A DNA stretch of 64,000 nt from Protoeuglena noctilucae (Eukaryota), in the NCBI GenBank assembly GCA_958009085.1, contig OY253687.1, positions 682,001 to 746,000 of the forward strand. The letters are read 5' to 3'. Below, in pieces: positions 2,591-25,464 of this stretch. Positions within the stretch are counted from its first letter, which is position 1, and each line of letters opens with the position of its first letter. The notes beneath the pieces were generated by a model that was not told where the DNA came from, made no database searches, and saw only the letters and a list, made by a program, of their open reading frames with translations. The position numbers and the translations under genes were made by a program.

Positions 2591-2705
2591 GAGCTGCGGG
2601 CTTTGTTTGGGCAGATGGACGATGGTCACCAGGATGAGTGACGGGGCTCGCCGGGGATGGTTGATGAATGAGGGGGGCTGGACAGGGATGGGTGGCGTTG
2701 GAGAT

Positions 2706-2787
2706 GCTCTGGAGCAATGGAGTAGGGGCGCCTTGCAGAATGACGAGCTCTGGAGCAATGGAGGAGGGGCGCCTTGCAGAATGACGA
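2706..2787. repeat. 41-bp direct tandem duplication
   Basis: gctctggagcaatggag(t/g)aggggcgccttgcagaatgacga twice, with one mismatch. Confidence 0.95.
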
Positions 2788-2914
2788 AACGTCTTCTATG
2801 CAACGATTGTGGCTCGGGACGCAGCTCACTAAAGCTCTTTGCTCTTGTCGACCTCCGCAGGGACGCCCGGCCCCTATCCCGTCCTAAGCAAGGAGAGGAG
2901 AGGCAGTGGCAGGA

Positions 2915-3130
2915 AGCGCAGGGTAGCCACTTGGGTAGCCGAGGTGAGGCGCAGAGCAACCACTTGGGCAGTGGGGGTGAGGGGCAGGGCAGCTGACGGG
3001 GCAGTCCGGGTGAGGTGCACGGCAACCGGTTGGGCAATCTGGGTGGAGGACAGGGTGAGGTGCTCGGCAGCCAGTTGGGCAGTGGGGGTGCGGCCAGGGG
3101 AGCCACCTGGGCAGTCGAGGTGAGGCGGCC
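2915..3130 (-). repeat. Degenerate ~30-bp minisatellite; translates on the minus strand as ~10-aa LTxTAQVxA repeats in a frameshifted ORF
   Basis: Recurrent 'ccacttgggcagtgggggtgagg'-like units. Peptides LTSTAQVAP, TPTAQLAAEH, LTPTAQVVAL and LTSATQVATL fall in two frames. Confidence 0.6.
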
Positions 3131-4444
3131 ACGTGCACATCCCTCGAAGTGCTGTATTACGCTTGGTCCCTCCTGCAAATCACGTAGCACAAGCACGTAG
3201 CACCCCTCGCGCTCCTGCACGTGCTTGGCATCCGCAAACGCGTGCTCGGCGTCGCTGTGGCTGCAGATGGACAGGCCGAGTTACAGGGAGACGCGGGGTC
3301 GGGGCAGGCTCCGCAAGGCCAGGTTTTGGACAGCTGCGGGAGCGACCAGAAGTCGCAGGTGAGGCGGCTGCGGGGTCTACTACAAAGTAACGGGCGAGGA
3401 GCGTGCCAGCGATCGTTGCCAGTCACCATCCATCCTGCGCGCGTCGATCGATCAAGCCCGAGCCACCCCTCGCCCACCACTGCCCTGTGCCTCAACTCTC
3501 GCTCGCGCGTCCGCCCCGCAGGTCGCCGGCCGCCCCGAGTCGGGCCTGTCGCTGGCACAGGCCACAGAGGTGGTCCCTGCGTCCCTCCCCGCGACACCGC
3601 CGGTGCTGCCCCCGCCGGTCGTCGCCACCGGCACCGCCCCTTCCTAACGCGACGTCTTTCGTGTCACTAAGGTCTGTATTGAGAAGAAACAAAAACCTTC
3701 CTGCCGGTGCCTCAGATCACGAGGCCACTCGAGCGCCCTCTCCCTTACGGAGCCCTCCCACCGCGCGAGTCGCTTCACACGTCCCGTCCCCCGTCTCACC
3801 CTGTCTCACCCTGTTTCTCGCTCGCCCCCACTAGCAGGGCAGGGCAGGAGCGCGACTCCACGTGCACGTCGATAGTGGTGCTAGATTGATGCAACGATTG
3901 CCGATCGTTTCCGGGGTATTCCTTACGAACACGCCGTGGGCGGACTGGTCATCGTGACAATCTCGACCCCGTAGCGCTCCTCGACGCTTTCTAACCTTTT
4001 TCCGCTCCTAGACCTCTTCTCCTGCGTTAGCGCCCCCTTCTCACCCCTTTGACCCCTTCCTCTGACTCCCTCCCAACCCCACTCGCGCTAACCGCAACTA
4101 CGTACCCTTTTCCAGCCCACCCACTTTGCCCGCTTCCCGCCCACTTGCCCCTTTCTCACGCCTCACTGGCGTCTCTTTTCCAGCTCTCACAGCTTTCACA
4201 GGCCAGCAGCACGCCAACTTCGCTTGAAGAGGAATTGCAGTGGACATTGGAAGGCCAGTTAGGGTCCACGACGTGTGCTGTAGACGGTCAACAGCACTTA
4301 GCACAGCACATGCACCCTCGTCACGGCCAGTGAGAGTGACAGTGACGCCTCTTAATGCAGAGATTCAACAGCACAGCACGTGCCCTCCGTCACGGCCAGC
4401 CAAAGCGCATCTCCCATGACACAGACACAGGCACCACGCATCAC

Positions 4445-6159
4445 TCACGCCGCCTTGGCCGCGGCAGTGGCCTTCTTGAGGCTGGCGACGATGGCGTCGG
4501 CGTTGTCCCGCACCCACCGCACCCTCTTAGCGTACGCGCCCGCGCGCGACGTGAGGCTTTCGATTGAGTCCTCGCCCGCCCGCGCCCGCCCGACGAAATA
4601 GACCGCGTTGGAGAGGATGCGCAGGTTGATGCAGTCGGGGACCACCGCCATCTCGTCCGCCGTCAGCTCCGCGTGCATCATGTAGCCCTGGATGAAGTCC
4701 TGCGGGGGGCAGGGTGGAGAGCAAAGGGGGATGAGAAGAGGCCATGATGCGCTACTCGTGCATGGCAGTGCACTATACTTTGTAATGATGATGTATCGTG
4801 ATCTGCTGTATCGCAACGTGCTTTGTGCTGGGCTGGGCTCGTGTACTGGGCCGGCAAGACGGCCAGGAGCTGTGACAGCACGTCGCGTGCTGTCGTGCTG
4901 CGAACAGGCCCTAACCCTGCAAGCGCCTCACCTCGACGAGGGGCAGGGGCTCCGCATCGCCCACGTACTTGGACAGGCAGACGGCGAGCTCCATGACACG
5001 CCAGTCGCGGGCAACGAACTCGAAGTCGAGGATGCCGCTGACACGGTCATCTGGCGTCGCGAGCACGTTGTCGCTGCGCAGGAAACAGAAGCAGGGTCGG
5101 CTCGCCATTGCACCCATGATGGATAAGCAAGTGCGCAGTACCTGTTGCCAAGACAGCAGTGCCACGTGCGTGACTCACTAGTGCACGTCGCCGTGGATGA
5201 GCTGCTGCGGGAGGTCCATCTCGTGCGCGCGCGACAACAGGCGGTCCTCCAGGCGCATGAGCTCCTCCAGCAGCGCGTCGGCCGCCTCACGGCACGCGTC
5301 CATGGCCGGGGACGCCATGTCCTCCATGAAGACCTCCCGGCTGCTCGCGTGGTGCACGCGGTACAGGTCGTAGTAGGGCGCGATCGGAGGCTTCATGTGG
5401 TCCACCTGCACCACAGGTGGACAGCCACGCGTCACACCAGCGCATGACAGGGTTAGACGAGCACTCAGGTGGCGTACACGGCACAGCACCTGTCGACAGG
5501 TGGCGCACTGCACGGTAACCTGGCGCGCGCTCGCCCACAGTGCCCCGCTCTCCGCCTCACACCTGGACTCGGGCCATGGCGCGCGTGAGCTCCCCCGCCG
5601 CCCGCCCGACCTCGCGGGGCGTCGTGGTGCGCGCCAGCGAGCCGGGGATCAGGAAGAAGACGCACGCGTCCGAGCCGTCCGCCAGCTGCTCGTGGTTGCG
5701 GCCGTTGCGCGACGGCAGGGCCTTGGGGACCTGGAAGCTCAGCGCCGGGCCCGCGTTGAGCTGCGCCAAGACGGCGTGCTCAAACTCGGCCTTCTCCGGC
5801 TTCCTCCCGTTGTTGTAGATGCGGAGGAGGTACTTGGTGCCGTCCGGCGTCTCGACATACTGCATGACGTTGTTGACGCCCCCGGTGGTGGCCGAGAGGG
5901 TCAGCTTGTCGGCGGGGCAGTCGGGGAAGAAGAGGCTCAGGGCCTCGGCCACGAGCTCCTCGGGGGCCGTGTGGAAGCCCGTGCGAGGAGCGGCGGGCGC
6001 CGAGGTGGCGGCGGCGGCCGCGGCGACAGAGGGCCAGGCGGGGGCGGTCGGGCGCGCCATCGGGCGCGGCTGGAGCGCGGCCGCGGTGGGGCGCGGCTGG
6101 GACGCGGCGCTGACGGAGGGATGGGACAACGCCCGGACGCTTCCGGCAATGCTAGCCAT
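4445..6159 (-). CDS. APH-family phosphotransferase, type II homoserine-kinase-like, with N-terminal organellar transit peptide (4 exons)
   Basis: GGVNN, YLLRIYN, FEHAVL, IHGDVH-x-DN (split by an intron) and GILDFEF motifs. Exons join at GT-AG junctions; TGA at 4447-4445. Confidence 0.85.
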
Positions 6160-6878
6160 CGGGGCGGCGCCTCGGGCTGGATGGACGTGCGTTCCTGCGA
6201 GCGGCTCAGAGCGATGCGCGTGTTGCGGCAATGTCTGCGCGTCAAATCCCTCCTCGCGTGCATATCCCCTCGCAGCCGGCGTCACTCGTCCCGTTGCAAT
6301 GGCGCAAAGTTGCACACGCTGCGCGGGAACGCGCAGGCGGGTCCCCTGACACAGCGGGGGAGGCGCGACGTCGAGAGTCGACTAAAAGCCACCTAGGCAT
6401 GCCTGTCTGATAACTTTGTGTCGTTTGTACGCGTCGAAGGCCACGGTGGCTCCCCGCACGGCTGCGTCGGCACACCGGCACCAATCTCACCTGCTCCTTC
6501 GAAAAGCTCGCAATCGCCTGGCCAGATAGGCGTGTTTTGTATGTGTCGTTTGTATATGTCGCGCCTTGCGATGCCGAGGAGGACGCCAGGTCTTGCAAGA
6601 ACCTACCCCACCAACACTCGACTAGATGTTCAAGAAAGACGCATTTAGGAAAACGAGACGATGCACTATGAGCCAAACGACCGCCCACACGTGCCATCAC
6701 AATGAAAGCGCATCCAGGAATCAAATCACGTGGCGACGCCACTGCGAGCGAGTGGGCCTTGTAGGTCACCTCCTGACGTCCTCCGCCATGCAATTCTCAT
6801 GAACGTGGGCGACTCTAGCATCAGTGGGTCTGGACTACATAGTCACCTCCTCCTCGCCGTCAAGAGCCGTCTGATCGG

Positions 6879-9201
6879 TTACAGGCGAAGAGTCCGCCAC
6901 TCCTCCAGCAGCTGGGTCAGGTCCGCCCCCGACAGCGCGAAGAAAACGTCCGGGACTCGCGAGACTGGGAAGCTGGCAATGATGGTCCCGAAATCGTTGC
7001 TCCCGCTCCCATGGATCACATCGAAATTCACCAGGTTCGCCACTGCGGGCAAACGTGCGTGCCTCGCTCCCCGCAAGGCCCCTGACAGCTCACTGCGAGT
7101 CTCCCTGCTGCCCGCGCGACTCACCCGTATCCTCCGCGCCGCTCGCGCTGCCCCTGGCCCCCACGCCAGCCGTGGCCCCCGGGTCCCCCGCCCAGACCAA
7201 ACGCGATGCCTCGGCCGGGCAGCAGAGGAGCACCCGCAGGAGCGCGTCCGTCCGCGAGAAGTTGGCCGGCGCGAGCCTCTCCGTCCCGTGCAGCACGCCC
7301 TGGTCGGCGTGCCACGCCACATCGATGGCCCACAGGGCCCTGCCGTCGTCGCCCCTGGCGCAGCCCGTGTCCGGGCACCGGCACTGGATGCCCAGGGCCT
7401 CCCAGCAGACGCGCGTCAGCCACTTGTAGAGCTCGACGGAGAAGGCCTGGCTCAGCCACTGGCCGGACAGCCCCTTCGGGACCGTGGCTGCAGGGGTTCG
7501 TGCATGACACATGTAACGTTGTGTCTGGTATCCTGGTATGGTGGGAACTGTTAACAGGCGATCAGTGGCAAGTCGATTTCTGGGCGTGTTGTTCTCACCG
7601 GTGGCGATGGGGAAGACCGGCAGCACCACGCGCGTGCAGTCCGGGGGGCCCGCCATCTGCTGGAGCTGCGGGCAGGGCAGGGCGCAGGCATCGAGGGTTG
7701 CCGTTGTCGCGTTGCCTACCTCTCGTGGACCGACCGTAAGCTCCCAGTTCGCATCGTAAGACTGCGAATCTCTGCCTCACCTCGACTGCTCCGAAGGCAT
7801 CCACGAGCATGGACAGGGCGGCCGGGAGCGCCACACGGTCGGAGTCCCGTACCACGGGATGCTCGCCGTACCGCAAATCAAACTCGGAAATGGATGACCT
7901 GTGAGGGTCAGGCAGCGCATGGGGGCTTTAGTCCAGTCCTGTGCTACAGGGATGGGTTAGGGATCGCTCAGCAAGACATACAAGGCGAGGTCTAGCCGGC
8001 GCCCTCACCGATAGCCGCGCATAGACATGACCCGCAGGCGGCGGTACAGGCACGCCACGAAGGCGTCCACGGTGAGCGCGACGCACTTGTCGAAAGCAGC
8101 TTCCTGCGAATGGACACGGCGCAGTGAGGCTCTGCTACACAGTGCAGTCAAGGTTGCCGCATCCGTCGCCGCAGCATGTCTTGACATCTCTCGTCACCTG
8201 GAGGCCGTGCCCGTTGCTCCAGAGCGCCTGCGCGGCCTCGATGGTTTGTCGGGAAGGAGCGTGGCCGAGCGCGTCGAAAAGGCTAGACATGAGGGTGGAA
8301 TGACGCTTGGACTGCGCGCAAGGGTCGAGACGCGTGTTCCCCGACCGCCGTGCAGCTGCGGAAGCACAGCAGTGCGCCTGCCTCTCGCTGTACCTTGTGG
8401 CGGGCGAGGTCGCGTAGTGCTTGCGAAGACAGCACGTGGCGCAACAGGGACTCGAGGTGCGCGCGAAGGGCGAGGAGGTGCAGCTTGACGGGCTCGACGG
8501 ACGCGTCCGACGGAACGCGATGCCCGAAATGGCTGGCCAGGAGCTCCCGGGCCGCAGCAGGCAGGTTGGGCGGTGACGGAGGCGATGCAGGCGCGGGCGA
8601 AGATCGGGAAACGGGGAGCGGGGGTGCATCCGAGGAAGCTGCGCTTAGCGCGACTGTCCGGCTGCGAGCGCATTGGTGGCGACGGTGTTAACTGCGTGCA
8701 AATCCCGCGTCGTGCAAAGCCCCTGTCCAAAATCCCTCCCTCGCCTCGCCTGGACAGATCGGAGCGGGTCCGCCGTCGTAATTCATCTTTCCCTGTCGAT
8801 TGGGATGGCCCTTTCTCCAGGATGCTCCGCAGGCTGCGTGAACATCATGTGGGCCCAGCGTTTGCACGCATGATCGCCCTCGCGAGCTAAGCTGCCTGCG
8901 CATCGCTCGACGCATATCTTCCTTGTCACCTGATTGACTTTCCGACGGGCGCCCTTCTCGTGAGGATCGACCCTGAGCTACGTGAGCTACCCGACACGGA
9001 CACCGTGCGCTCCCCATCCTGCTGCTGCTTGTTCTCGGCCAGATCCAGCCCCGCCGCGTCAACCAGATCCTCCAGCGGCGGCGGCGCGTCCTTCCGCGCG
9101 TGGCTCATCGAGGGCACCCGGAACAGCCATTTCGGGGTTTTGGGCGGCGCCGAGTCCTCATGGCGGAGTCTGCCGCTCCTGGACCCGTCCCTCCCTTTCA
9201 T
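6879..9201 (-). CDS. Multi-exon orphan protein; central region reminiscent of partitivirus coat protein (unverified)
   Basis: Seven exons from about 8600 to 6879 join in phase via GT-AG (...LARHK|SKRHSTLMSS...GLQ|EAAFDKC...RGYR|SSISEFDLRYGEHP...FGAVE|...). TAA at 6881-6879. The 5' start at 9201 is tentative. Confidence 0.6.
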
Positions 9202-9491
9202 CGCGTTGTAGGCCCCGTACGGCGGGGCGAGAGCCGCTTTGTGCGTTCCTGCAGGTGCAAACTCTGGCGTGGCGGAGCGCCAGCGAGGCTCACCACTCCC
9301 TAGTGGCCCAGGCTCGTCGCCGGCGCAATCCGAACGAGACCTGTGCAAACGTAATTGTGGCAGGAAGAGGCGTGCAAGCAAGTCGGTCCTCTCGTTTGAA
9401 TTGCTGAGCTACGCAATCAAATAGCTTTGCAAACTGCGCCTGGACTCGCTGGGGGAGAACGACTTAGCATTCCTCGGACGCTGGCAGGGAA

Positions 9492-10223
9492 ATGGAGGGC
9501 AGCAACCTGGGCGCGGGGGCGCAGGTGGTGCGTGTCGTGCATGGCATCGAGTCGCATGTTTTGGCCCTCCCCTGTGGTCTGCGGGGCCCCGGCCCACCTG
9601 CCGCAGCGTCACCATTGCAGTGGGAAGCAGACGCTGCGCGCGCCCCGTTCGCAGGTCATGGCATCTTGCTGCGACTACCGCTTCCCGCCCGACAACATGC
9701 TGGAAGTGTCGGAAGAAACCTTTTGGGCCACGACGGGGGGCTTCCCTCAAGAGTTTATCATCGACTTGGGCGGCGTAGCGCAGGTGGGGGTGCTTCTCAG
9801 GGCAGGCACTCGTCCTGGTCGATGGTCGAGTGTGCGCCTGGGCAAAAGTGCTTGCCCCAGCGCCCGCAGGTGGCGGCGGTGGACTTTGTCTCCATCAACG
9901 TGCGCAAGTTGTCGCTTGAGACTTGCGAGGGGGACATGCCCGACCGATGGGACGTGGTCGCGAAGCAGCTCGAGATGCCCAACATGCAGGACCGCACCCA
10001 GGTGAGTTGGGTGCGCAAGAGGGGAGGCACACCCGCCCCACATCTGCCCACGACCATGCCACGTGCGGGCGTGCGTCGATCTCTGGGCCTGCGCACCCAC
10101 ACGCAGTCGCAACGCAACTTGAAGGTGAACCGGAAGGCACGATACCTCAAGTTCACCATCATGGACGGCTGGCAGGAGTTCTGTGCCGTCAACTATGTGG
10201 GGGTGCGAGGCACCATGCAGTAG
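9492..10223 (+). CDS. IFT25: Intraflagellar transport protein 25 (HSPB11 family), 4 exons
   Basis: GAGAQV|VMAS...FPPDNML...ETFWATTGGFPQEFIIDL, VRKLSLE and ARYLKFTIMDGWQEFCAV match the IFT25 pattern. Confidence 0.9.
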   Translation: MEGSNLGAGAQVVRVVHGIESHVLALPCGLRGPGPPAAASPLQWEADAARAPFAGHGILLRLPLPARQHAGSVGRNLLGHDGGLPSRVYHRLGRRSAGGGASQGRHSSWSMVECAPGQKCLPQRPQVAAVDFVSINVRKLSLETCEGDMPDRWDVVAKQLEMPNMQDRTQVSWVRKRGGTPAPHLPTTMPRAGVRRSLGLRTHTQSQRNLKVNRKARYLKFTIMDGWQEFCAVNYVGVRGTMQ

Positions 10224-10530
10224 CTGCAGCTGGCACGGCTGGGGCAGGGCGCAAGCATGCGGTTGCACGTGAGACCCTTTGCTGGCACGGGCGCCTGGCG
10301 GGAGGACGTCACTAGGCTCGCCGTCAGGATAGCTGTACACTCACATAGATGCAAGGGCGGGGTACCGTTTGTATATCTGTCCACGTGTTGAAAGCTTTTT
10401 CTTTGGTTGCCCATCTTGTCCAGCCCTCGGACCCGCTGAAGTATCGCAATCAAGTGCTGCTGACAATAACTGTCGCATTGTGTAACCCCGGACAGCCGCA
10501 GCGCTTGAGTGACAGCTCATGCGGGGCGCC

Positions 10531-12048
10531 ATGCTCTCGGCCGGGTGCTCGCCCAGCACAAGCGGGCGACCGACCCACTCTCCTCGGCTCCTGGCGACGC
10601 TGCGGATGAGGAGGACAAGCCAAGGTCGTAAACCGTTCACCGCGTGGGCGGCGAGGCGTTTCGTCGACGCGTCGCAGGCGAGCGGCCCCAAGCGACGTTT
10701 ACGGCTGCCTGCCCGTCGCCCTGCGCACCGGAGCGTCTATAATCCTGGCCGCTCGCTCGGTGTAATGCTGAACGACATATCCAGCAAACCACAGCACGCG
10801 CAACCCGCAGGAGGAGGTGGCGGTGGCGGACCGGGGACATGTGGAGGGGGCGGAGGTGCAAACAGTGCAGTGGTTCCCGGGACACATCGCGCGCGCCGAG
10901 AGGATGTTGCGCGAGCAGCTGAAGGTCGTTGACGTTATCCTGGAGGTCCGCGACGCTCGCTGCATCCTCTCCACCGAGCACCCACAGCTCGACACGTGGG
11001 CCCACAACAAGCCGCGGCTGCTGATCATCAACCGCGTGGACATGATATCGCCGGAGGACCAGAAGCAGTGGCAGAGGTGCCCGCCGCGGCCGAGGGGGCT
11101 TTCCTGTGTTGCGGCGGCTGTATAACTGCGAGTTGCTCCGACCACACCATGGAGGCCGCCCTTGTGGAGCTTTGCGCGCCCCGTTTCCTCCGCAGGTACT
11201 TCGACCGCCAGCGGCTGAGCGTGTTCTGGACGGTGGGCCAGTCCGGCGACGGCGTCGCTGGCGTCCAGCGCGCGTGCCGCCGCATCGCGTCCGACATCAA
11301 CGAGCGCCGCTCCCGCCGGGGCCTGCGCGCGCGCTCCGTGCGTGCCGTCGCGATCGGCTTCCCGAACGTCGGCAAGTCCGCGCTGCTCAACCGCCTGGCG
11401 GGCCGCAAGGTGTACGACAGCGCACCCAAGCCCGGCGTCACGCGCTCGCTGAAATGGGTCCGGGTGGACGATGGGGTCGACCTCCTCGATGCCCCGGGCG
11501 TCCTGCCGATGCGATTCGACGACCAGGTCGCCGCCGTCAGGCTCTGCATGGTCAACAACATCGGGGAGGCGTCGTACGTGCCATCGCGGGTGAGGGGCTG
11601 AGCAAGGGGCCACAATGCTCGTATATTCCCGTGCGAGTCGTGCATCTCATCGCGTCGTTCCGTGGATCCCCAGGTGGCTGCGGCGCTTGTGGCGAGGCTC
11701 CGGGCGCTCCCGGCTTACGACGCCTGCCTCCGCCCCGCGATGTGCCGGCGGTGGGGCATTCCCGAGGACGCCATCGACGGCATGACGGCCGAAGAGGTGA
11801 GGAGTGGTGAATGATGGGTTGGGCCAATGGCGGGCTTGGCGTATAGACGGGTGCGCATTGCGCGCTGTGGATCTTTGGCACACGCACGCATGCCATCTCC
11901 TGGCCCGCAACGGCTCCCGCAGGTCGTCCGAGCCGCGTCTCAGTCGCTCTTTCTCGGAGACATCGAGAAGGGCGCCGTGCGCGTTCTGAAGGACTTCCGA
12001 ACGCTGTCGTTGGGGCCTGTCGCGCTGGAGGCGCCACCTCTAAGTTGA
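10531..12048 (+). CDS. RbgA: Plastid ribosome-biogenesis circularly permuted GTPase (RbgA/YlqF family)
   Basis: QWFPGHI, VDVILEVRDAR, IINRVD, GFPNVGKSALLNRL, PGVTR, LLDAPGVL. First intron (10678-10810) is GC-AG. Confidence 0.9.
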
Positions 12049-12238: not shown

Positions 12239-13952
12239 TCATCGCCGCGCCCGTGCTGGGCCACTCTGCGCCAAGGCTCGCAGCACCCCAAGAGCCGCCT
12301 GGTCCGCTGCCGTGCCACCCTGCTCCTCCAAAATGGTCTCCACGTCCGCCGCCCGCGCCACCTGCCGCCCAGCGCCGCGCCCCATGGCCGTGGCCGCGCC
12401 CACCGCGTTGGCCAGCGACAGCGTCACGTCCTCGCCCAGGCGCTGAGAGAACCCCGCGACCACCGCGGCAGCGAAGGAGTCACCGCAGCCTACCGTGTCG
12501 GCCACTGGCACCTGCGGGGGACCAGAGTGCGGAACGTGGGAGCGAGCGGTGGTGCCACGTACTCCCATCACTGTCACTGACCGTCACTGCCTGTGGCAGT
12601 GGCCTGGCAACTGCGATGGAGGGTGAAGCGCACCTTGAACCCCGGTCGGTGCACCACGGCCCGAGAGGACCGCGTCACGAGCGTGCTGCCGCGCCCGCCC
12701 TGCTTGACCACCACCCACTCGAGCCGGGAGCCGGGGCCCGCGAGGAGAGCCCTCGCCATCGACACCGCGTCCCTCTCGCCCGTGACCGCCTGCGAGCGCG
12801 GCACGGCGACGAAAGCTGTAACAAAGGCGTACAACGCAAGCCGACGGGTCCGGAATCAGCAAATGTAAAACTGCTACCTCACCTCTCCTTCCTCCTCTGT
12901 GACCAGCACTCCGTCGGACACGGCCAGGACGGCATCGAGGGCTTCCCTGCGCGGCCCCTCACGCATCGTCCAGCAGCGCGGGCCTGGGTCGAAAAACACC
13001 GACGCCCCGCTCCCACGGGCTTCCTGGCAAGCCTCCAGGACGGTCTGCGGGTCGTGGTAAGGTACCACTGCGTCGGCGTCGTTGCGTGCTCGAGCAGCGG
13101 AGCGGCAGAGCAGCAAGACGCAAGGGTGTCTGTCATCGCTGGGTAAAGATGTCAATTGTCAGTCGCACCTGTAAGGGTAGCTCGTCAAAGGTGAATCCGT
13201 TGATCCAGACAGCTCCCGTGTGTCGCAATGCGTCGCGTGCCTGAGTGCTGAGCTGCACGGAGGTGCCCAAAAGCGGCCAGGGGCCGAAGTCGTAGCTGCT
13301 GACAAACGCATGGCGTCCTTGGGGATCCACGAGCACGTAGCACACCAGCGTGTCCGTGGGGCCGCTGGGGCTGTTGGCGACCGGCACCAGCTGAACACCC
13401 TCCTCGTCCACCATGACGCGGCGCATGAAGTCGCCGAAAGCGTCCCTGCAGCGCAGGATAGCCCAACAGTTCGCCGATCCTCCGCAAAAAAGCCAGAAGC
13501 GCATTGCAGAGCTGCGGTGCCACTCACCTCCCCAGGTGGCCCACGCTGACGCTCGACAGACCTATGCGAGACGCAGCGATGAGAAAGTTCGTGTTCCCGC
13601 CAACCTCCCAAGTCTCGGGCTCGGGAGGGCGGTCGGAGCGCTGCCGCAACAGGGCAACGCGTCCCTCGACGTCCGTTGCGGCGGGAAGGGCGGGAAGCGG
13701 GACCACCACGTCAACACATAGGTTGCTCAGTGCCACAACATCACTCCCGGGCCTCTCCGCGATCGCTCGCGCGGCCAGCGTTGCGCGGGCACCCCGACCA
13801 TCCCAACGCGAACGACCGCGGCGAGGCAGATCCGCGTAACCGCGCTCCGGGCTCAGGTGTGTGAGCTGGCCATATCCATACACAACCGCGCGGCGTTCAG
13901 ACGTCGACGCGATCCCCGTGGAGGCCGGGGCCCCAGGTACGAGGCTGCCCAT
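12239..13952 (-). CDS. PfkB/ribokinase-family kinase, plastid nucleoside kinase (PNK1)-like
   Basis: DVVALSNLCVDVV, WEVGGNTNFLIAASRIG, FFDPGPR, VVVKQGGRGS and DTVGCGDSF (PfkB signature). Confidence 0.88.
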
Positions 13953-14255
13953 CCGCAGCCGCGACCTTTGGATTTCCAGCAGCGCCGCGCCAGCTAAGAG
14001 AGTCTACTGGGCTGGAAAGAGATGCACGGATGCTCCGTGTCGCGCTGCGGATGGCTCCTACGGCTCGCACGGCTTCGGTTACGGGCGCTGCAAGCACGAG
14101 CGCAGCGCTGAGCGCAGGGATGACGTTCGCAATCAGTTCACAAGTGCAGGGTGATGCCACCCTTGCCAAAGACAGCGCAGGCGCGGCTGTGACTGGCAGT
14201 GACAGCGACGCTTCTGGGTGACAACGGTGAACATTGTCGCACAGCACTGGGGCGC

Positions 14256-16503
14256 TTAAGCGCTCGCAGCCAGCTCGCGCCCCTCCGCCTCCTCGCTCTC
14301 CTCAACGACGCAGTGCTCGAAGCCCTCCTGCAGCAGCGCCGCGTCGAGCTCCCGCCCGATAAAGACCATCTTTGACACGCGGCGCTCGCCCTCCTTCCAC
14401 TTGGTCCCCGGCAGGCCGTCGAACATCATGTGCACGCCCTGGAACACGAAGCGCTCCTCGACTCCCTTGATGGCCAGGATGCCCTGCACGGAGGGAGCGG
14501 GGGCGACTTGCTCGCCCCAGTACCACCCAAAACACGGCTCTGCAAGCCTGTCGACCTCGCATGCGCCCCGCAGTCTCACCTTCATGCGGTAGATGTCCTC
14601 CCCGCGGAACTGCACCACCATGCCCAGCCACTGGTTGACCTTCTCCAGGTCGAGCTCCCCGTCGATGCGAAGCGACACTGAGGAAACGAAGGCGCATAGG
14701 ATGGAACCTCGCGACGTCGCCGTATGCAACCATTTGCATGTTTGAATGAATAATTCAAGCGCGCCAGGGCTCACCCGACTTGACGAGGTCGTCGTGGATC
14801 TCGTGGTTGCAGTCCGCCCCGCACTTGTGCCCCTCCTCTCCGTGCGCCGGGTTGCCGTGCGCGTGGGCGTGCGAGTGATCGTGGTGCTCGTGCCCGCAGT
14901 CCGGCCCGCACTTGTGCCCTTCCTCCCCATGAGCATGGGCATGCGCGTGACCGTGCTCGTGCTCATGCCCGTGCTCATGCTTGTGGTCATGGTCGTGACT
15001 GCACCCCGGCCCGCACTGGTGCCCCGCCTCTCCGTGCGCCGGGTTGCTCTCCTTCAGCAGCTCCCCGTTCACCTCGGCCTCGACTCGCTCGAGGTCAAAC
15101 CCACCCACGCCCAGAACCCAGCCGAGGTCCACCTTGGACATGCGGGACTCGCGCACCTGCGCCGCCCGGTTGATCTCGCGGATCCTGCGGGGGCGCCGAT
15201 GACCTTGTGACGCGTCAGACGCACTGGCGTGTCCCAGCCCGTCCAAATGCGCCTGCTCAGCTCACACTCGCGGGGCCGCTTGCGCTGCACAACCCCTGCT
15301 ATACGTATCCTCCCGAGAGACAACTGGCACCCCAGCCCTATAAACCCAGAAACTGGGGTTAGACCCGTTCCCGCACCTGCTAAGCACCTTGGCCTTCTGG
15401 GCATCGTCCACCAGGTCGCACTTGTTGAGCAGGATGCGGTCCGCATACGCTACTTGCTCCACGGCCTCGTTCACCGCTCCGTTCTCAGCCTTCCGGTCCA
15501 TTTGCATCATCGCGTGCTGCGAGGGGCGCGTGCGTGGAGCCGTGACGCTAACAACCCCATCGCTCGCGCAGCCAAGCACAGCCGTGAAACCAACCATCAC
15601 GACCACGTGAGACACCAAACGGGCTGCTGAACGGCACTTGTGCGGCGGGGCAGAATCCGGCTCGACGGCCGTGGCACGCCCGGCCTGGGCATCGCTCCGT
15701 CGCTCACCTTGGCGTCCACGACCGTGACGACCCCGTCGACTGCGTACTGTTGGAACAGGTTCGGCTCCGCGAAGAAGGTCTGGAGGATCGGCGCGGGGTT
15801 CGCGAGACCCGTGGTCTCAATCACGATGTGGTCGAAGCTGCTGCGGCGCTCCAGGAGGCTCTCCAGGGTCTTGACCAGATCCCCGCGCACGCTGCAGCAC
15901 AGGCACCCGTTGTTCAGCACCACGACCTCCTCGGCCCCGAGGTCCTGCTTCAGGGCGACCAGCTCCCCGTCGATGTCCGTCTCGCCAAACTCGTTCTGCA
16001 AGGGGACACAGCAACGCGAACAGGGTGGGTCACCAAAGCACCGAGCACGGGCAGGGTGCTTGACCTCGACATCTCTGGAAGTTAGCGACACGCCAGTCCA
16101 TGAATGCACGGATCTGCTACGTGCGAACGCGCACCTCGATGACGGCGATGCGGAGGCCGTGGTCGCCCTGCAGGATGTGGTTGAGAAGCGTGGTCTTGCC
16201 GCTGCCCAGGAAGCCCGTCAGAATGGTGACCGGGATCTTGGTATCCTGCTCCGCGGATGCCGGAGCAGCGGGCTGCGCGGCCTGGCTCGCGGCCTGGACC
16301 GCCGCGCGGCCCCGGGGCGCGACGTCCACCGTCAGCGGACGCCACGCATCCATGACGCGCGCCGGCACGCGTCGCGGGAGCTCCGCGGCGCACATGGCCT
16401 GCGTGGAGGTGCGCATAGTGACGTTGGTCCCGAAGCGGCAAACGCGGGGGCCCCAGCGTGCGTGCGCCGGCGCGAGGGAGGCCGTGGTTTGGTACCAAGC
16501 CAC
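14256..16503 (-). CDS. COG0523/CobW-family G3E metallochaperone GTPase (ZNG1-like) with transit peptide and His/Cys-rich insert
   Basis: [54 protein letters not shown]-terminal RMKG...FQGVH...VFIGR. Confidence 0.93.
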
Positions 16504-17019
16504 CAGACCGAGGCGCGAGCCCTCGCCTTCGCCGTCCGCGCGGTCCCGACCTCCCTTCCCGCGACATAGCTAGCCTTCAGTGTCGAACACATGTTCATGG
16601 TCTCCCCGATGCGGTCGTGGCGCCAGGCTGCGTGCGGAAAGGACCGGGTCAGCTACAACGGTGCGCGCCTCTCCTGGGGACCGGGGGCGCGGTTCCGCAG
16701 ACACACTCGCTTCACATAACAACAACCGCACCTTTGGCAACCGCGGACGCCTTGCATACCGCACACGCGGGCCGAGGAGGGGGCACGTCTGAGCCACGGG
16801 AGCTACTCGCCAGGCAGCGGCGATTCGCGCAGCAATGAAGTATCAGCGCAGTGGGTGAAGCCAGCGACACGAATGTGGTCTCGGCCGGTCGCTGGGCGAT
16901 GCATGTTCGCTGCCCTCGCCGTGCCACTGGCACCGACGGAACCGGCGACCTAAAGCGGCTCGCGCCGGACCTGCCGACAGATCCGTATCTTTGATCCGCG
17001 GCAGGTCCAGGGAACAGCC

Positions 17020-19222
17020 ATGGCCAGCCTCACGTCCATCGCCCAGGTCTCGGCCTCGACCACCGGCCGCAGGACGGCCGAGGTCGCCAAGGTGCGAAGC
17101 GCGTCCTGCTTTTCCGTTGTTCAGATGCATGCCGGGGACTCGGCGAGTGATCTCGTTCCCCCACGGGCTGCATCCGGCCTTGCCAAGTGCCCGGAGCGGC
17201 GTCGCCGCTCTGGACGCGGGCGCCTTCCACCCGCAAGCTCTCTGGGAGCGCGAGTGACGACATTGCGGCGATGCGCGTCCGCTGGGGCCCGGGGCGCGCG
17301 CTTGGCCCTTGACGAATGCCGGCCCTCAGTTTGGCGATTATCCTGCCGGGCGCGGCGCCGCGCCAGCCCGATCGGGAGCGCTGGTCGTGCTCAATAAGCG
17401 CATAAATGGCGATTTCGGATGGCTGTGTCGGTTTCGGGGCCCCTCGCTCCCTGGCGGGGCTGGACAGCGCCCCAGGGAAAGCAACACGGCTGCCGCTTCC
17501 TCTGGCGAAGCCGTGACGCCTCCACGATGCCCTACCAGACCATTGGCATCGATGTCTTCCTGGCGACGCTCTAGGAGCTTCCCCGCGACGCGCGTGCCTC
17601 CATTTCCCCGCAGGCCTCCGTGATGCGGAGCGCGGCGTCCGCGTCCTCCAAGGCCTCCGCCTTCGCCGGCTCGCGCGCCGGCGTCGCGCAGGGCAAGTCC
17701 GCCCGCGGCGCTGCCCGCTCGGCTCGCCGGGCCGTCGCCGTCTCCGCCAAGCTGGGGCAGTACCTGGAGGAGTTCCTGCTGGAGAACGTGAAGGAGAACG
17801 ACGTCCGCCAGTCCATGCTGGCCCTTTCCGAGGCCTCGCGCGCCATCGCCCACAAGGCGAGTGACAGCCCAACCGGCCCTTCCCTCCCCGTTCCACACGG
17901 TCGCGTCATCCGCACCATGCACGCGACCTCCTGCAGGTCCGCACCGCGTCCTGCGACGCCATCGGCTGCGTCAACTCGTTCGGCGACAACCAGCTCGCCG
18001 TCGACGTGCTGGCGGACAAGACCCTGTTTGAGTCCCTCCGCTTCTCCAATGTCTGCTTTGCCGCGTGCTCGGAGGAGGTGCCCGAGCCCGTTCCCATGAA
18101 CCCGGAGGCCAACCTCTGCGTCGCCTTCGACCCCCTCGACGGCTCGTCCATCATCGACACCAACTTCTCCGTCGGTACCATCTTTGGCGTGTACCGGTGA
18201 GCCCCACACGCCGTGCGATGCTGGCACAGGCGCTTTGGTCAGGCAACGCGGCGCGAGGAGCTAAGGGGTCCGTCTTGTCGGCCCAGCGGCCCCAAATGTG
18301 CTACCAGCATCGCCTCTGCAGGGGCAAGGCCCTCAAGGGCATCACCGGCCGGGACCTGGAGGCTGCGGGCATCACCCAGTACGGCCCCCGCACGGTCTTC
18401 TGCGTGGCGTTCAAGGAGGTCCCCGGGTGCCACGAGTTCCTGCTGCAGGTGCGGAGACACTAAGGGATGGTGGCGATGTGGCGAACTGTGTTTGCAAACC
18501 CATGGGGTGGCCCCGTGGAATGGGTTTCCTACCGCAGCGATGGGGCCGGGTCATGATGGGTCGCACGCCTCGGTGCACGCAGGACGATGGGCGCTGGGTG
18601 CACGTGAAGGAGACGCACCAGATCAAGGAGGGCAAGATGTTCAGCCCTGGCAACCTGCGCGCCACGTTCGACAACGAGCCCTACGAGAAGCTCATCAACT
18701 ACTACCTGACGGAGAAGTACACGCTCCGCTACACGGGCGGCATGGTGCCCGACGTGTTCCAGATCATCGTCAAGGAGAAGGGTGTCTTCACCAACATCTC
18801 CTCGCCCTCTTCCAAGGCCAAGCTCCGGTGAATGCGGGCGGCGTGGGAGGGGCGGCATTAAGGCAGGCACAATGAGCGCACAATGAGACGGGCGCACATG
18901 AGACGGGCATGTGGGGTGCACGCAGGGGTGCAGCGAGCGCCCAGCCGGCGCCGGAAAGAGTCCTCAGCTGGCGCAGGTTGACGTGGCGAGCGAGAGCGCC
19001 CCGCACCGCCCCCGCAGGATCCTTTTCGAGGTGGCGCCCATCGCTCTGCTCATTGAGAAGGCGGGCGGCGCCTCGTCCGTCGACGGTGTGTCGGCCCTCG
19101 ACGTGCCGATCGAGGCGTACGATCAGCGCACGCAGATCATCTACGGGTCCAAGGGGGAGGTGGCTTTCGCCGAGAAGACGCTCTACGGCAAGTCCGTACG
19201 CTTCGAGCAGGTCCTGGCCTGA
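17020..19222 (+). CDS. SBPase: Sedoheptulose-1,7-bisphosphatase, chloroplast
   Basis: Transit peptide, [17 protein letters not shown] (redox CxxxxC), [59 protein letters not shown]. Confidence 0.97.
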
Positions 19223-19504
19223 TCGGGCAAGTCCTGGCCTGATCGGCCTGAACCCGTCCTAGGCTATGCGTAGCCCCGTCACGTGTTGATACCGCTTGGG
19301 TGCGAGATAGGTGGGCCACCCTAGGCCTGCGTTCAATACAGCAAAATCGTGACACGTCAGCAGCTGGCACGCCCGTTCCGGCCGCGCGAAGGTTTAGGGG
19401 CTCCTGCGCACGGTCTCCGACATTCGCTTAGTAGAGAGCGAGATTCGCAGGGCGGCCTTAGCACGAGTGAACCTCCGTCGACGCGATATCGCCCGTCCTT
19501 GCGC

Positions 19505-22306
19505 ATGCACACCAATCACCCGCCGAGGACTCGCAATCTCGATGTTTCAGAGCTCGACGAGCTCCTGCGGGAGCTTGTTGACGACACGGGCGCGGAACGC
19601 GTGCTCCTGCTGCCCTCTCGCCGCGGGGCGGGGCCCATCCGTGGGTGGTGAGAGGGACACCCACAGGGAGGGCCAATTGGGCGCATGTCGCCATGTCTGA
19701 GAGAAATGCTGACGACTCCTCAAACAATCTCATCTGACAGACTTGACGGGAGACTGGCAGGCCCATCTGCTGCGAATTCGCGGCGCTTGTGCACCGACAT
19801 TTGCGCGGGGCGGACATTCGCGCCGCGCCGGAGCGCAGCTGCGACGACTTAGAGCTGCCCGCCCTTACCGACCACGCAGGGTCTCGGGTTCGTCGGACTC
19901 TCGTTAGGATCGCGGCATCAGCCAGCGACGACTCCAAGAGGGAGGACCGCTCCAAGAAGGGCTCGTCGTACGAGCAGGGGACGCGACGGCGCGGGAGGCC
20001 TGCGTGGAAGCGCTCCCCCTATGACACGCCCCTCCGGGATGGCAATCGCGACCGTTTGATCGGCCTCGTGACCGGTGCGTGCAGATTACGCTGCACTGCT
20101 GCCTAGGCGCGCCCTCGAGGGCTATATGCGGCCCTCCGACCCGCCACTGCAACAAAATCGTCGGATTTGCCTGCCGCGATCGCAGACCGCGCGGCTAGGA
20201 TGCTGTGCACGGAGCTGTCTCTGGGCCCGGATGCAGCGCTGGGGGCGTGGTTCCTCGCGTTCGTCGAGCGGCACCCGATTCCTCGCGACGGCGCCTGGGA
20301 CGACGTCTCCGGCGAGGCTTTCCTCAGGTGCGCGGGCCGCCGTCGACTCGTCCCAGTTTGCTAAATAGGGCGGCATGCCTTGACCACATCCTCGCCCGCC
20401 GCCTGTGGATATCTCGTGCTCTTCGCCGGCTCAGGGCGCTCCTGACGATGGACTTCACCTCGTCCGAGTGGGACGCGGCGCTGTTCGGGCCCTTGGTGGC
20501 CGCGCAGGGCGACCCGGTCGAGGTGGATGTTAAACTGGATGCCGACGAGGACGTCCCGCGGATGGACCCGCGAGCCCTGGCGTTGCGTGTCATGGAATTG
20601 AGGTGCGGTTGGGCGTTGGGATGATGCGGAGATATCGGTCGAGCGAAGCGCGCGAGGGCCCAGTCGAGTCATCGATCGCAGGGCGCAAGTCGCGGCGGAT
20701 TTCACGGCTGTTCTGGGCGGCGTGAAGGACGCCAATGCCGAGCTGCTGCGGGAGGTCCTGCAGCGGTCCCTGGAAGGGTCGGGGGGCGAAAGCACCAGCA
20801 CGGTGACGGCAGGAGGCGCATGGATGGCGTGCATCCGCCACCGATGATCCCCTCAACATCTGGGGATATAAATAGCATTTCAGCAAGCTGCCTCCGCCGC
20901 GTGACGCTGCAGAGTACGACTGAGAAAGAGAAGGAGAAGGACGGCAAGGCGGAGGCGGAGGCCGGCTCCGAAGCTGTGAGCAAGGCGCCCTCTGCTGCGG
21001 CCACTGCAGCCACCGACGGCAAGGACCAGGGACCGGCCAAGGGCGCCTCCAAAGACGCTGGCGCAGCCAATGGCAAGGCCAAGGGCGAGACCAAGAGCGA
21101 GGGCGACCTTTCGCAAGACGCCTCGCCCACGGCCGTGGCGACGCGCAAAGCCAACTCCGAGCGCATCATCGGGCTTTTGACCGGTGAGCACGGAAAGGGC
21201 TCTGATACATTGCAAGCTTGTGTGCTGCACTCCTAGGTCATCTCATATCAATTGCTGCCTCCCTCGCATTGCCACGCCATGATGCGTCACTGCCCGTGCA
21301 TTGCATCACATCGCCGCGGCTGATCCCCGCAGCATAAATCAAATAACACTTGTCACCCTTGCCCGATCACCCTCGCCTTGTTGCCTCCCACGCAGACCGC
21401 GCGTCGAAGACGCTGGCGTATTACTTGATGGAGACCAACCCGACCCTCTGCGCCTGGTGGACTGACTTCCTCCGGGTGTCCCGCATCACGTGGGACCAGG
21501 GCGGACCCCACGCGTCCGGCGAGATCTTCCTCAGGCGAGTGCGGGTAGTCACGCACCCTCATGTCTGATCGTGCTTTCCATGCTCGGTTGCCAGCCTGTT
21601 CGTCTGTTCGCTGTTGCACGGTTGCGCTCTATCGACTGGAGTAGGGCCGCGACGTTGCACACAGCAGCACCTTGTGCCATGCGCAACGGCGCCACAAGCA
21701 CGCTTCACACGCGACCGCACTCGCATGACCCATGCTGTGATGGCTCCCATCGTGCATCGCAGGCGCCTCTTCTCGATGAACCTGACGACGGCGTCGTGGG
21801 GCGAGCACGTGGGGATGGACGAGATGTACCGCAACTTTGGCGCCATTGCCGTGGACCCCCGCCAGATGGCGCAGCGGGTGATGGACATCCGGTGAGTGGA
21901 GAACCATGCAATAGAGATGCGCAACATCAGGCAATAGAGATGCGTAACAGCAGGCGGTAGAGGCATAGCGGGTGATGGACATCCGGTGAGGGGAGCAGCA
22001 GGCGGTAGTGAGCATAACAACAGGCAATAGAGGTGCATAGTGGGTGATGGCCATTTGTGGGAGGAGCAGCACTCCCTCACCCCACTCTCGCTTGCGCCCC
22101 CTCCCTGCTCATCCCACCTGACACCACCACCACCACCACGTGTCCCCACCCCCAGTGCCCAACTGGCCAAGGAGTTCATCGATGATCTGTCCAACATGGA
22201 GGAAGAGAACGCGATCTTGTACCGGGAAGCCCTGCAGAGGTCGTTCCAGTTCACCGTCAAGAGCATGGACGACCTCAACGACCTCGCGGGTGGCAAGAGG
22301 GCCTAA
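19505..22306 (+). CDS. Protein with two tandem RbcX-like domains joined by a ~110-aa K/E/A/G-rich linker (5' end uncertain)
   Basis: In-phase exons: ~19880-20074, 20186-20327, 20435-20602, 20682-20802, 20913-21183, 21396-21534, 21763-21891, 22156-22306. Motifs LLTDRAS...LMETNP...W...F, SGEIFLRRL, AQRVMDIRAQLA and EEENAILYREAL. Confidence 0.75.
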
Positions 22307-23028: not shown

Positions 23029-25464
23029 TCAGCTGCACGCCCGCTCCACGCGCCTCACTGCCTCCTCCAGCAACTCCGCCGCCATGTGCAGTACCCCAGC
23101 ATCCACGCCGCCCATCACGAGCCACCCTGCCGACCCCTCTGCATGCGAATTACCACCCCCGCTGGCCCCTGTGCCCGTCACTCCACCCACCGCCTGCGTC
23201 GCAGCGCCCGCCTGGCCTCGGGGCGGCACCAGGGGTCGATCGGCGTGCGTGAACCCAACTGCTGATAGGAACGCCATGGCCCCATCCAAGCGACCTGCCG
23301 CAGCTTGCAGTCGGGCGTTGGATTGGCGCAGCTGCCTCTTCTGCAGGTCGAACGGATTCGACGCCACGTTGCGCACGATGGAGAGGAGCAGCTGGAAGGC
23401 CGCCGTCGCCTGCAGGGACAGGGCGCAAGGGTGCATGAGAGGGTGGGTTACGCACAAGAGAGGTTGGGGTGCATGACATGGCAGGGTGGGGTACATGAGA
23501 GGTGAGGCCTAGCGGATGGGCCAGGTAGTCACGGGTGCAGGGGTACATGAACAGAGATGGATGGGCAAGCGTCTTGCAAAGTCTCACCTCACCTCAGCGG
23601 GGCTGCTCGCCGCCCGGACGACGCGGTCTGCCAATCCCCGCAACTCCGTCGCCTTCATCACCGCCGCGTCCGCCTCAGCGACGCCCCCGTCGATCTCCCA
23701 TGCGCCGAACACGCACGCATCGCGCCAATTATTGACGGTCCCATCCCCACCGACGCCATTGTCGGCGTCACCCCGGCCTGTGGCTAAAACATCGCTCATG
23801 TGCCAATCCTCTCCGCCCGCCTCCCCACCAGACGCCACCCCGGCATCCACGCCACCCTCACTGTCGCCGGACTGAGCGGGGGACGGGCCAGCATTGGAGC
23901 CACTCGTCCCATTAAGGCCAGGCTCAGCCCTGTTTGACGCATTGTCAGCCCTATCCCCCAAACCCTCCTGGGCCCTTTGCTCTGGATGCCCATTCCCATC
24001 TCTTGTCTGCATTGCGCTCCCAGCCGCCACCCCATCCCGTCCGCCCGCCCTTCCACCCCCTCCACGCTCCCGCTCCCGCCGGATCATCGCCAGTTGCGCC
24101 TCCACAGCCCTCAATGCCTCCTCCGCACTCATCGTCCCACTAGCGCCCCCAGCGCTCGCCCCTCCGCCCCAAAAGCGCCCCGCCTCCCGCAGCAGCTGCG
24201 CGCACGGCAGTCAGAGCATGACACACTCCCCACAAAGTCATCATGCCACAAGCCACACTCCACGCTATCCGCTTGCACCTTTTGCCATGCCCCCTGCCCC
24301 AAGCGGGGCAGTGAGAGGGTGCCAGCCACGCTCTGGTGCTGCCAGGCACCGCGCCTACTGCCCCGCTGCTGCGGTCTTACCTGGGAGTTGAATGCCTTGA
24401 AGTCGTCGTCGTGGTCGCTGAACACCATGTGCGCCAACTCGTGCACCATCACTTGGCGCACTGACTCGAATTTCCGGAAGCCCCGGAGGTCGTCCGTGCG
24501 CAGCCTGAAGGCACGGGCAGGATCGCGAAATGAACAAATGGATAAGGTTGAATGCACAGGAACCAGTTCCATGCTTAATTGCTTGGGTCTCGTACCGCAG
24601 CGCAATCTGCTGGCCGCGGTTGATGTTGACGCCGAGGACGCAGACCGGGGAGACGCCCACGAGGCCTTCCGGTGGCATCTCCCGGAGCACCGGGACGTGC
24701 CAGCGGTGCGTGCGCATGAGGTGCGCGATGCCAGGATCTGCCGCAACCCTGTGGAGGAGCGCCTCTGCTTTGTCCAGGGCCGGCGAAAGGCCCGGGCGAC
24801 GCCAGAGCTCGAATGCACCGAAACCATAGCCGCTGGAGTCTGTATAACGGGGAACGAAGGGGTTGGAACCTGTCGAAAGCGCACAGACGCAACGCGCGGG
24901 TGCGCAAAGGGTGACATTCGCACAGCAGTGCAGGCGCCCCCGGCCAGCGTCGCCTGCGCAGCCTGCGCACCCGCAGAAGGCCCCGGCTGTGACTGAAGAC
25001 TCGCTCGCAGTCGCCGTGCATGTCGCTCCATCTCCTCGTCGAAGCCAACGACCGTGCGGTCCTCGCGCAGATGCCGCAACTCGTCGATCCTCGCCGCTTC
25101 GGTACAGAGGACGACACCGCGCAGAACCCCATCCGGAGCAGAAACTCCGAACCAGCTGCTTGGAGAAACAGCGGGGGACGAGGTGCACTGGGCGCCACGC
25201 TGGAGAGCTCGCCATAACCTAATCGGTCCAATGCGCGCCATTTCACCTGCCAACGGTGGTACTCGTTGTTGCTGCCGCATACGTAAGCGGTTTCTTTCCC
25301 TTCACGATAATCTGGGCTGTCTGGATGTCCGCTGAGGCCTTGAGCTGCGTCTCGCAGGCGCAAACAACTTCCCGGAGCAAATTGAGGGCCAGGGAATCCG
25401 CTTCCACGTTGAATTCGAGCGGTGTACCACCACGAAAGGACAGAAGAAACGTACACCGCGACAT
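23029..25464 (-). CDS. Ubiquitin-like + WLM (Wss1-type) metalloprotease + PUB domain protein
   Basis: N-terminal Ubl (QIIVKGK), LREMPP...LGVNINRGQQIALR, VMVHELAHMVFSDH (HExxH), PUB-like IVRNVASNPFDLQKRQL...FLSAVGF. Confidence 0.88.

Follow-up and report, generated by a model that had tools for sequence, protein, structure and literature searches.

A single-chain tandem RbcX-like protein within a green-algal family of RbcX relatives

RbcX is a Rubisco assembly helper that normally acts as a pair of separate chains. It is among the few dedicated assembly factors of Rubisco and is a standard ingredient where that enzyme is rebuilt in foreign hosts. Here we describe a green-algal gene in which two RbcX-like domains, D1 and D2, are carried by one chain. 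It lies on the plus strand of a 64,000-nucleotide (nt) stretch of contig OY253687.1 (Protoeuglena noctilucae, assembly GCA_958009085.1, positions 682,001 to 746,000), which is called the window below and to which all coordinates of the gene refer. Its product, for which the database open reading frame (ORF) P0001 serves as the reference, gives RbcX a new architecture and belongs to a green-algal family of RbcX relatives. Full-text literature searches for a tandem, fused or two-domain RbcX found none, and neither did they return a study tied to this green-algal family.

In the parts of Bracher et al. (2015, PMC4549274) that treat the RbcX dimer, each subunit lays its last helix against the partner, one RbcL tail is held in the cleft and corner residues contact a second RbcL, the equivalents of Q29 and R70 being functionally critical for that second contact. 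A lone RbcX-fold domain would thus need a partner. RbcX-I and cyanobacterial RbcX (Syn7002 'ORF134', 2PEM; Anabaena RbcX, 2PEO; AtRbcX2, 4GR6) share with the protein described here three helices and a long, kinked C-terminal helix, and their residues E32, N34, R70 and R75 are conserved also in the green-algal family and in D2. They are, however, homodimers of chains of approximately 15 kDa, whereas P0001 holds two domains in one chain, and P0001 differs further in an insertion of 25-38 amino acids (aa) between helix 3 and helix 4 and in a conserved basic N-terminal motif; in its family Y17 is replaced by L, Y20 by D/E and Q29 by Y. RbcX-II (CrRbcX-IIa, 5BS1/5BS2; AtRbcX1, 4GR2) is green-lineage, plastid-targeted and of the same fold; D1 aligns best to one of its chains (5bs1_C) and, in the residue comparison of the same source (PMC4549274), it has a Leu in place of Y17, as does P0001. 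Nevertheless, RbcX-II is a weaker sequence relative of the family than RbcX-I, is a dimer of two chains and carries its insertion after helix 1 rather than before helix 4.

Two further green-algal RbcX-domain proteins stand outside the classical annotations: UM003_0241 of Ulva ('RbcX-like') and UTEX250_A12.36490 of Auxenochlorella ('RBCX-I candidate'). Compared by description only, and as far as the passages devoted to them go, the former is depicted as having a single RbcX domain and a single Rubisco-binding motif and the latter is mentioned with one RbcX-like domain; in those passages neither is described as tandem. The ulvophyte and Chlorellales members of the family described here come from Bryopsis, Ostreobium, Parachlorella and Chlorella sorokiniana.

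The tandem gene is genuine, nuclear and expressed, belongs to a green alga and has nine coding exons and a product of 473 aa; the window is 65% G+C, intron-bearing and resembles green-algal nuclear DNA. An earlier note on this DNA, made from its letters alone, had spliced eight exons (19880-22306) in phase into one ORF. These do form a single open frame up to the TAA at 22304-22306, and to them a further coding exon at 19542-19647 has to be added. P0001, an ORF of 440 aa, comes from public Logan contigs no longer than 2911 nt; it was found by a word-indexed search with a 45-aa exon, and the spliced translation is identical to it from 'SRVRR' to the C-terminal end. The 'MGG' with which P0001 begins corresponds to a GTG at 19641 that the ORF caller took as a start; this is followed by a GT donor at 19648, which indicates the upstream ninth coding exon and its in-frame ATG at 19542. 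The features of the gene are as follows.

19438..19541, plus strand: 5' untranslated region, minimum extent; the X1 and X2 RNA contigs begin at 19438
19542..19647, plus strand: coding exon 1, with the start ATG and the first 35 codons; a transit-peptide-like leader rich in S, T, R and A and free of acidic residues
19648..19879, plus strand: intron 1, 232 nt, GT-AG; joint seen in one of three RNA runs (X2)
19880..20074, plus strand: exon 2, with the end of the leader, the N-terminal basic motif (approximately 19984-20052) and the start of D1 helix 1; by blastn, 19955-20074 matches loci of the RbcX-like family
20186-20327, 20435-20602 and 20682-20802, plus strand: exons 3, 4 and 5, splicing into one frame
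20913-21183, 21396-21534, 21763-21891 and 22156-22306, plus strand: exons 6, 7, 8 and 9, splicing into one frame
20038..20784, plus strand: domain D1, RbcX fold, P0001 residues 56-205, exons 2-5; introns 20075-20185, 20328-20434 and 20603-20681
20785..21125, plus strand: linker, disordered and rich in A, K, G, S and E, P0001 residues 206-282; contains intron 20803-20912
21126..22258, plus strand: domain D2, RbcX fold, P0001 residues 283-425, exons 6-9; introns 21184-21395, 21535-21762 (GC-AG) and 21892-22155
22304..22306, plus strand: stop codon TAA
22307 to at least 22800, plus strand: 3' untranslated region; the X1 and X3 RNA contigs extend past 22800

A search of sequencing runs identified four metatranscriptome RNA runs, all of one study, holding approximately 0.49 of the words sampled, a fraction equal to that of the exons, and DNA-like runs of an 'organism A' containing all of them. 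Contigs were compared from three RNA runs of that kind (X1-X3, three samples from one study) and one DNA run (X5). In each of the three RNA runs all seven introns between 20075 and 22155 are removed within one contig (1914-1975 nt), while in X5 the stretch is covered by one unspliced piece in which no intron is skipped. The earlier note had considered that D1 might end at a TGA near 20845; instead, the 110-nt intron 20803-20912, which has GT..AG ends and is in phase 0, is spliced out in 3/3 RNA runs (junction 20802/20913) and D1 and D2 are therefore carried by one mRNA. Intron 21535-21762 is of the GC-AG kind, no GT fitting within the 6-nt ambiguity of the joint. Around exon 1, the X1 and X3 contigs start inside intron 1, at 19823 and 19828, respectively, and in X1 the exon is present as a separate short contig. 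Acidic residues are absent from the first 51 positions of the 473-aa product, where S, R, A and T abound. Such an N-terminus is typical of a chloroplast transit peptide, and on this composition the protein is probably targeted to the plastid.

Some smaller features of the transcript were also recorded. An out-of-frame ATG at 19505-19507 stands 37 nt before the main ATG at 19542, both in weak contexts; with intron 1 removed, it opens an ORF of approximately 57 codons that runs to about 19905 and overlaps the main start. In one X3 RNA contig the 3' end of the upstream SBPase-type gene (19325) is connected to 19519; the 193 nt left out have CT..AC ends, and only 30 nt of the contig lie beyond the joint. 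An assembly chimera, read-through or an antisense-type intron could account for this. Around the last intron (21870-22060), the exon 8 end and its donor, '...GGGTGATGGACATCCGGTGAG', have a second copy inside the intron at about 21968-21990 and a decayed third one at about 22041; at 21908-21962 a 23-nt unit is present in 2.4 copies. Splicing from the second donor would run into a stop immediately.

The RbcX likeness of the two domains, proposed in the earlier note, is borne out by profiles and by structure. Against the Pfam RbcX model (PF02341), P0001 scores 37.4 bits (E 3.3e-9; gathering cut-off 27) in three stretches that span both domains; none of eight single-exon pieces matched this model, the pieces being too short. 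By sequence alone, P0001 retrieves only RbcX chains from the PDB and does so weakly (E 0.12). A profile of 37 single-domain relatives reaches AtRbcX2, an RbcX-I, at 2.6e-6, Anabaena RbcX at 3e-6 and Syn7002 RbcX at 8e-5, as opposed to 0.31 for AtRbcX1 (RbcX-II), while CrRbcX-IIa went unmatched at E<=10 in the same PDB search. Matches to Pfam RbcX at E<=0.01 are found for 35/37 family members.

The AlphaFold2 model of P0001, built on an alignment of only the seven tandem proteins, has domain cores with a predicted local distance difference test score (pLDDT) of 82-95, a predicted template modelling score (pTM) of 0.60 and 228/440 residues at pLDDT>=70, with the D1 helices at residues 58-205. 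A MAFFT alignment of P0001 with 75 relatives, in which first halves lay on D1, second halves on D2 and residues 124-356 were uncovered, was left unused for folding. The order of helices in the model agrees with that in RbcX, and all Foldseek matches listed down to rank 48 are RbcX (template modelling score 0.52-0.72 on target length). In VIA-align, 19 RbcX entries scored Z 8.1-10.3 and covered 104-112 of 105-123 residues, the next unrelated chain falling to Z 3.5; taken separately, D2 (residues 283-426) reached Z 9.2-10.3 to RbcX chains and D1 (residues 41-202) Z 8.3 to 5bs1_C. The model of a single-domain relative, P0155, made from 37 sequences, has a core pLDDT of 87-98 (pTM 0.62, approximately 150/242 residues ordered) and AtRbcX2 as its best match (E 5.7e-4).

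D1 and D2 are homologous, with 36% identity over 148 aa (BLASTP E 6e-26) and scores of 151.9 and 158.7 bits, respectively, against a hidden Markov model (HMM) of the family. The three introns within each domain occupy matching aligned residues and have matching phases (T|D, phase 1; FLR|, phase 2; (L/I)R|AQ, phase 2). In the single-domain gene L065 the breaks lie near family columns 40, 84 and 124, the same three positions, which indicates that the duplicated unit already possessed its introns and was duplicated at the DNA level. The gene is thus a lineage-specific internal duplication of a single-domain gene, a conclusion to which a site-mixture tree and a single-domain positional orthologue (both below) contribute. 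On the homology of the halves, their shared introns and their origin by internal duplication the earlier note was right, as it was on an extra loop in each domain: between FLR and DPR there are 43 residues in D1 and 30 in D2. Canonical RbcX has about 5-6 there. In the AlphaFold2 model the insertion precedes the long last helix and forms a small hairpin in D2 and an extra helix with a disordered acidic loop in D1. The linker had been put at approximately 110 aa and is shorter, at 77 residues as judged by model disorder (pLDDT below 50) or 94 when counted from 'LQRS' to 'RIIG'.

The family extends across Chlorophyta. An exhaustive HMMER search gave 257 representatives at E<=1e-3, of which 117 remained at E<=1e-10, and in a family profile search P0001 ranked second of 129 matches (E 1.2e-107). 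The named members are all from Chlorophyta, namely Coccomyxa, Trebouxia, Myrmecia, Botryococcus, Parachlorella, Chlorella, Scenedesmus, Raphidocelis, Volvox, Astrephomene, Haematococcus, Sanguina, Bryopsis, Ostreobium, a pedinophyte, Chloropicon and Pterosperma. In the databases they are labelled hypothetical, unnamed or uncharacterised; the name RbcX is absent from the records of the members examined, and the clusters looked up for the tandem relatives and for the marine single-domain genes carried no informative name. The missing annotation is probably explained by the scores of most single-domain members, which lie below the Pfam cut-off. A typical member has approximately 240 aa, with a leader, the motif RRxGRPAxxRSPDDTPLRDGNRDR and one domain. 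Beyond that N-terminal motif, the family alignment (A1) is characterised by the pattern GLLTxRA...ETN...W...IPxxGxWDDVSGETFLR...DPRxxAQRIMxIR...EEN, to which P0001 conforms as a member. By its profile matches, the family appears closer to RbcX-I and to the cyanobacterial protein than to RbcX-II and would be either a fast-evolving RbcX-I orthologue or a third class, the domain trees covering family members alone.

Outside the domain, many single-domain members (for example P0012, P0015, P0016, P0025, P0027, P0038, P0040 and P0049) have a motif (F/V/I/A)HPE(L/M) after it and several trebouxiophyte-type members terminate in DDSA(A/G)G(S/G/N)DD; P0001 has neither. Some members from Volvocales and Sphaeropleales bear long C-terminal tails in which no Pfam domain is found. 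Intronless members of approximately 215-226 aa (L027-L044, for example L032 at 5998-6645) are very common in marine metagenomes, with one 90% cluster comprising 67 proteins on contigs of up to 1.57 Mb; these score 126-138 bits on the family HMM and have the basic motif almost at the N-terminus. In the ESM Atlas, the clusters nearest to P0001 include an RbcX-domain cluster of giant-virus (Nucleocytoviricota) proteins. A tblastn search against phage records gave no match and a family-profile scan of viral contigs revealed no relative.

Tandem forms are rare. Two complete domains are present in 7/235 fetched members (P0001, P0152, P0003, P0005, P0007, P0133 and P0135), another 30 of the 235 having one domain split by unspliced introns, and a two-domain gene occurs in 0/80 metagenome loci. 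In the domain tree the two domains of P0152 are mutual closest relatives, as are those of P0003 (support 97-98), while those of P0005 fall in one well-supported small clade with single-domain proteins and those of P0007 pair weakly. In a site-mixture tree, D1 and D2 of P0001 group together with the single-domain proteins P0002 and P0004 (support 82). Judging from these trees, the tandem duplications represent at least three independent events, and probably five.

The halves have diverged in a complementary manner. The tandem domains were aligned to the family HMM and scored at 45 columns with a conservation of 85% or more among 86 single-domain members. Of P0001, D1 retains 36/45 and D2 34/45, the two sets being different. 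In D1 the N-terminal motif is complete and the IPxxGxW loop is kept, and the Y, E and N of 'YLxETN' are lost. Conversely, Y, E and N are present in D2, from which most of the N-terminal motif has gone, as have the loop residues P, G and W. The two halves share the helix-1 core (G-L/V-T-x-R-A) and the Arg of 'AxRxM'. By HMMER alignment, the Y, E and N columns are Q29, E32 and N34 of untagged Syn7002 RbcX and the Arg is R70, so that the corner positions Q29/E32/N34/R70 read Y, E, N, R in D2 and E, G, D, R in D1. In 6/7 tandem proteins one domain has at most one of the three Y/E/N residues and its partner at least two; the decayed half is D1 in P0001, P0005 and P0007 and D2 in P0003, P0133 and P0135, whereas in P0152 both are kept. 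That the same fusion is accompanied by the same corner loss in one half in several lineages suggests a real functional asymmetry.

These observations can be brought together in an explanation that we consider somewhat probable: a plastid protein of tandem RbcX fold whose specialised halves pair within the chain and whose client is RbcL. With the flexible linker between them, D1 and D2 would fold onto one another and give the arc-shaped RbcX 'dimer' in a single chain. Such an intramolecular pseudo-dimer is likely, with indirect support from the modelled structure, in which a pTM of 0.60 with only about half of the residues ordered suggests one rigid body formed by D1 and D2 (the single-domain P0155, with its smaller chain, reaches much the same value). 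As the canonical dimer is symmetric and its RbcL target asymmetric, fusion would allow the halves to specialise, D2 supplying the corner (Y/E/N and R) and D1 the N-terminal basic motif and the IPxxGxWDD loop. One cleft, conserved in both halves, would be formed by the two together, with a single intact corner in D2. A single corner would impose docking on an RbcL pair in one orientation, and the protein may thus act on Rubisco large subunits, in assembly or in holding, in that fixed orientation.

Several results weigh against this explanation. At the contact sites, Q29 is replaced by Y throughout the family and the cleft positions Y17 and Y20 are L and D in D1 and D2 alike (L and D/E in the family); given these changes, the RbcL tail may not bind in the known way. 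The Leu at Y17 matches RbcX-II and the acidic residue at Y20 matches neither RbcX type, the residue comparison of PMC4549274 giving L57 and F60 for the two positions in CrRbcX-IIa. PDB titles list Q29A and Y17A/Y20L mutants of Syn7002 RbcX. Among the profile results, the cyanobacterial RbcX equivalog NF047598 (cut-off 150) gives only 33.6 bits for P0001, 23.0 for P0155 and 17.5 for P0152, and 12/16 relatives scanned are under the Pfam cut-off of 27 bits, which is reached only by the four tandem proteins P0152, P0005, P0007 and P0135. The structural model draws on few sequences, as stated. The transcript evidence consists of assembled contigs from one study, which demonstrate that the joined form exists and from which rare isoforms are dropped, and the exon 1 junction (19647/19880) appears in only 1/3 RNA runs. 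Finally, D1 and D2 of P0001 are not sisters in a 108-row LG+G4 tree. Separate origins of the two domains were not accepted on this account, because both are long branches, an approximately unbiased test does not reject joining them (p 0.141) and the mixture model places them in one small clade.

Some of these points would be accommodated by a reuse of the RbcX fold, whereby the chlorophyte family no longer handles RbcL and binds another client through the N-terminal basic motif and the IPxxGxWDD loop. The replaced cleft tyrosines, one by an acidic residue, and the weak scores against RbcX models agree with this, as does the finding that conservation is strongest in elements that RbcX does not have (RRxGRPAxxRSPDDTPLRDGNRDR and IPxxGxWDDVSG). 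However, the helical architecture is retained in full, as are E32, N34 and R70 of the corner, the gene adjoins a Calvin-cycle gene in two related algae and RbcX-II, according to the sections of PMC4549274 on its activity, still assembles Rubisco without the tyrosines. We regard such a reuse as unlikely.

Doubtful to a greater degree is a multivalent scaffold, in which D1 and D2 pair with other chains or bind Rubisco separately and the linker serves as a cross-link, for example in the pyrenoid matrix or periphery. [quoted passage not shown] On the other side stand the rigid D1-D2 body suggested by the pTM and a linker in which no repeated Rubisco-binding motif is visible. The family, moreover, occurs in Coccomyxa, which we take to be an alga without pyrenoids. 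Two adjacent paralogous genes, with D1 ending at the TGA near 20845 and D2 read from its own promoter, are very improbable: read-through of the donor at 20803 would indeed reach an in-frame stop at 20845-20847, and a rare isoform of that kind could drop out of assembled contigs, but one contig spans exons 2-9 with the 110-nt intron removed in 3/3 RNA runs, that intron has proper ends and phase, and after the junction no in-frame ATG precedes D2 (P0001 residues 206-300 are without M).

With a symmetric RbcX dimer on an asymmetric site, it is hard to tell which half does what; in a natural single chain with complementary, diverged halves, each site could be mutated separately. A broader proposal, which is tentative and perhaps more apt to fail than to hold, is that core green algae possess a third, unnamed RbcX class, marked by the basic N-terminal motif and the inserted hairpin, of which several lineages independently fused two copies and then lost the RbcL-contacting corner from one half. 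Were this so, nature would have done the experiment by which just one corner of an RbcX dimer is shown to be in use, and a ready-made single-chain RbcX would be on offer for the asymmetric engineering of Rubisco assembly. The family may also bear on the absence of RbcX-I from Chlamydomonas-type algae that is reported in Bracher et al. (2015, PMC4549274), and on the RbcX-like proteins placed at pyrenoids in the Ulva preprint, as far as its available part describes them (10.64898/2026.07.16.738900).

The genomic neighbourhood provides the positional orthologue. Immediately upstream of the tandem gene lies the following feature.

17575..19225, plus strand: FBPase-family (SBPase-type) gene, with Pfam FBPase N and C domains, exon ORFs and spliced RNA contigs

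The tandem gene had been placed directly downstream of an SBPase gene in the earlier note. An FBPase-family gene is indeed present there on the same strand, and it is presumed to be an SBPase. Preceding it, on the minus strand at 14256-16569, is a CobW/COG0523-type GTPase gene with a His-rich stretch. Two metagenome contigs, L010 and L011, are collinear over 6746-11774 with window positions 12341-19194, through an upstream gene, the CobW-family gene and the SBPase-type gene, whose exons share 68-86% protein identity with those of the window. After the SBPase gene both contigs bear a single-domain gene of the P0002 type in the orientation opposite to that in the window. A single-domain gene at the same locus of a related alga indicates that the duplication, together with a local inversion in one lineage, took place after the lineages split.

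In a more distant lineage (L074, L075 and L078), a CobW-like gene (approximately 5300-8800) is located about 3 kb from a single-domain RbcX-like gene (approximately 2000-5200). No SBPase match was found at these three loci, and the linkage may be old or due to chance. Downstream of the tandem gene, a long open frame on the minus strand of the window (24132-25301) matches the Pfam WLM metalloprotease model with E 2.2e-13.

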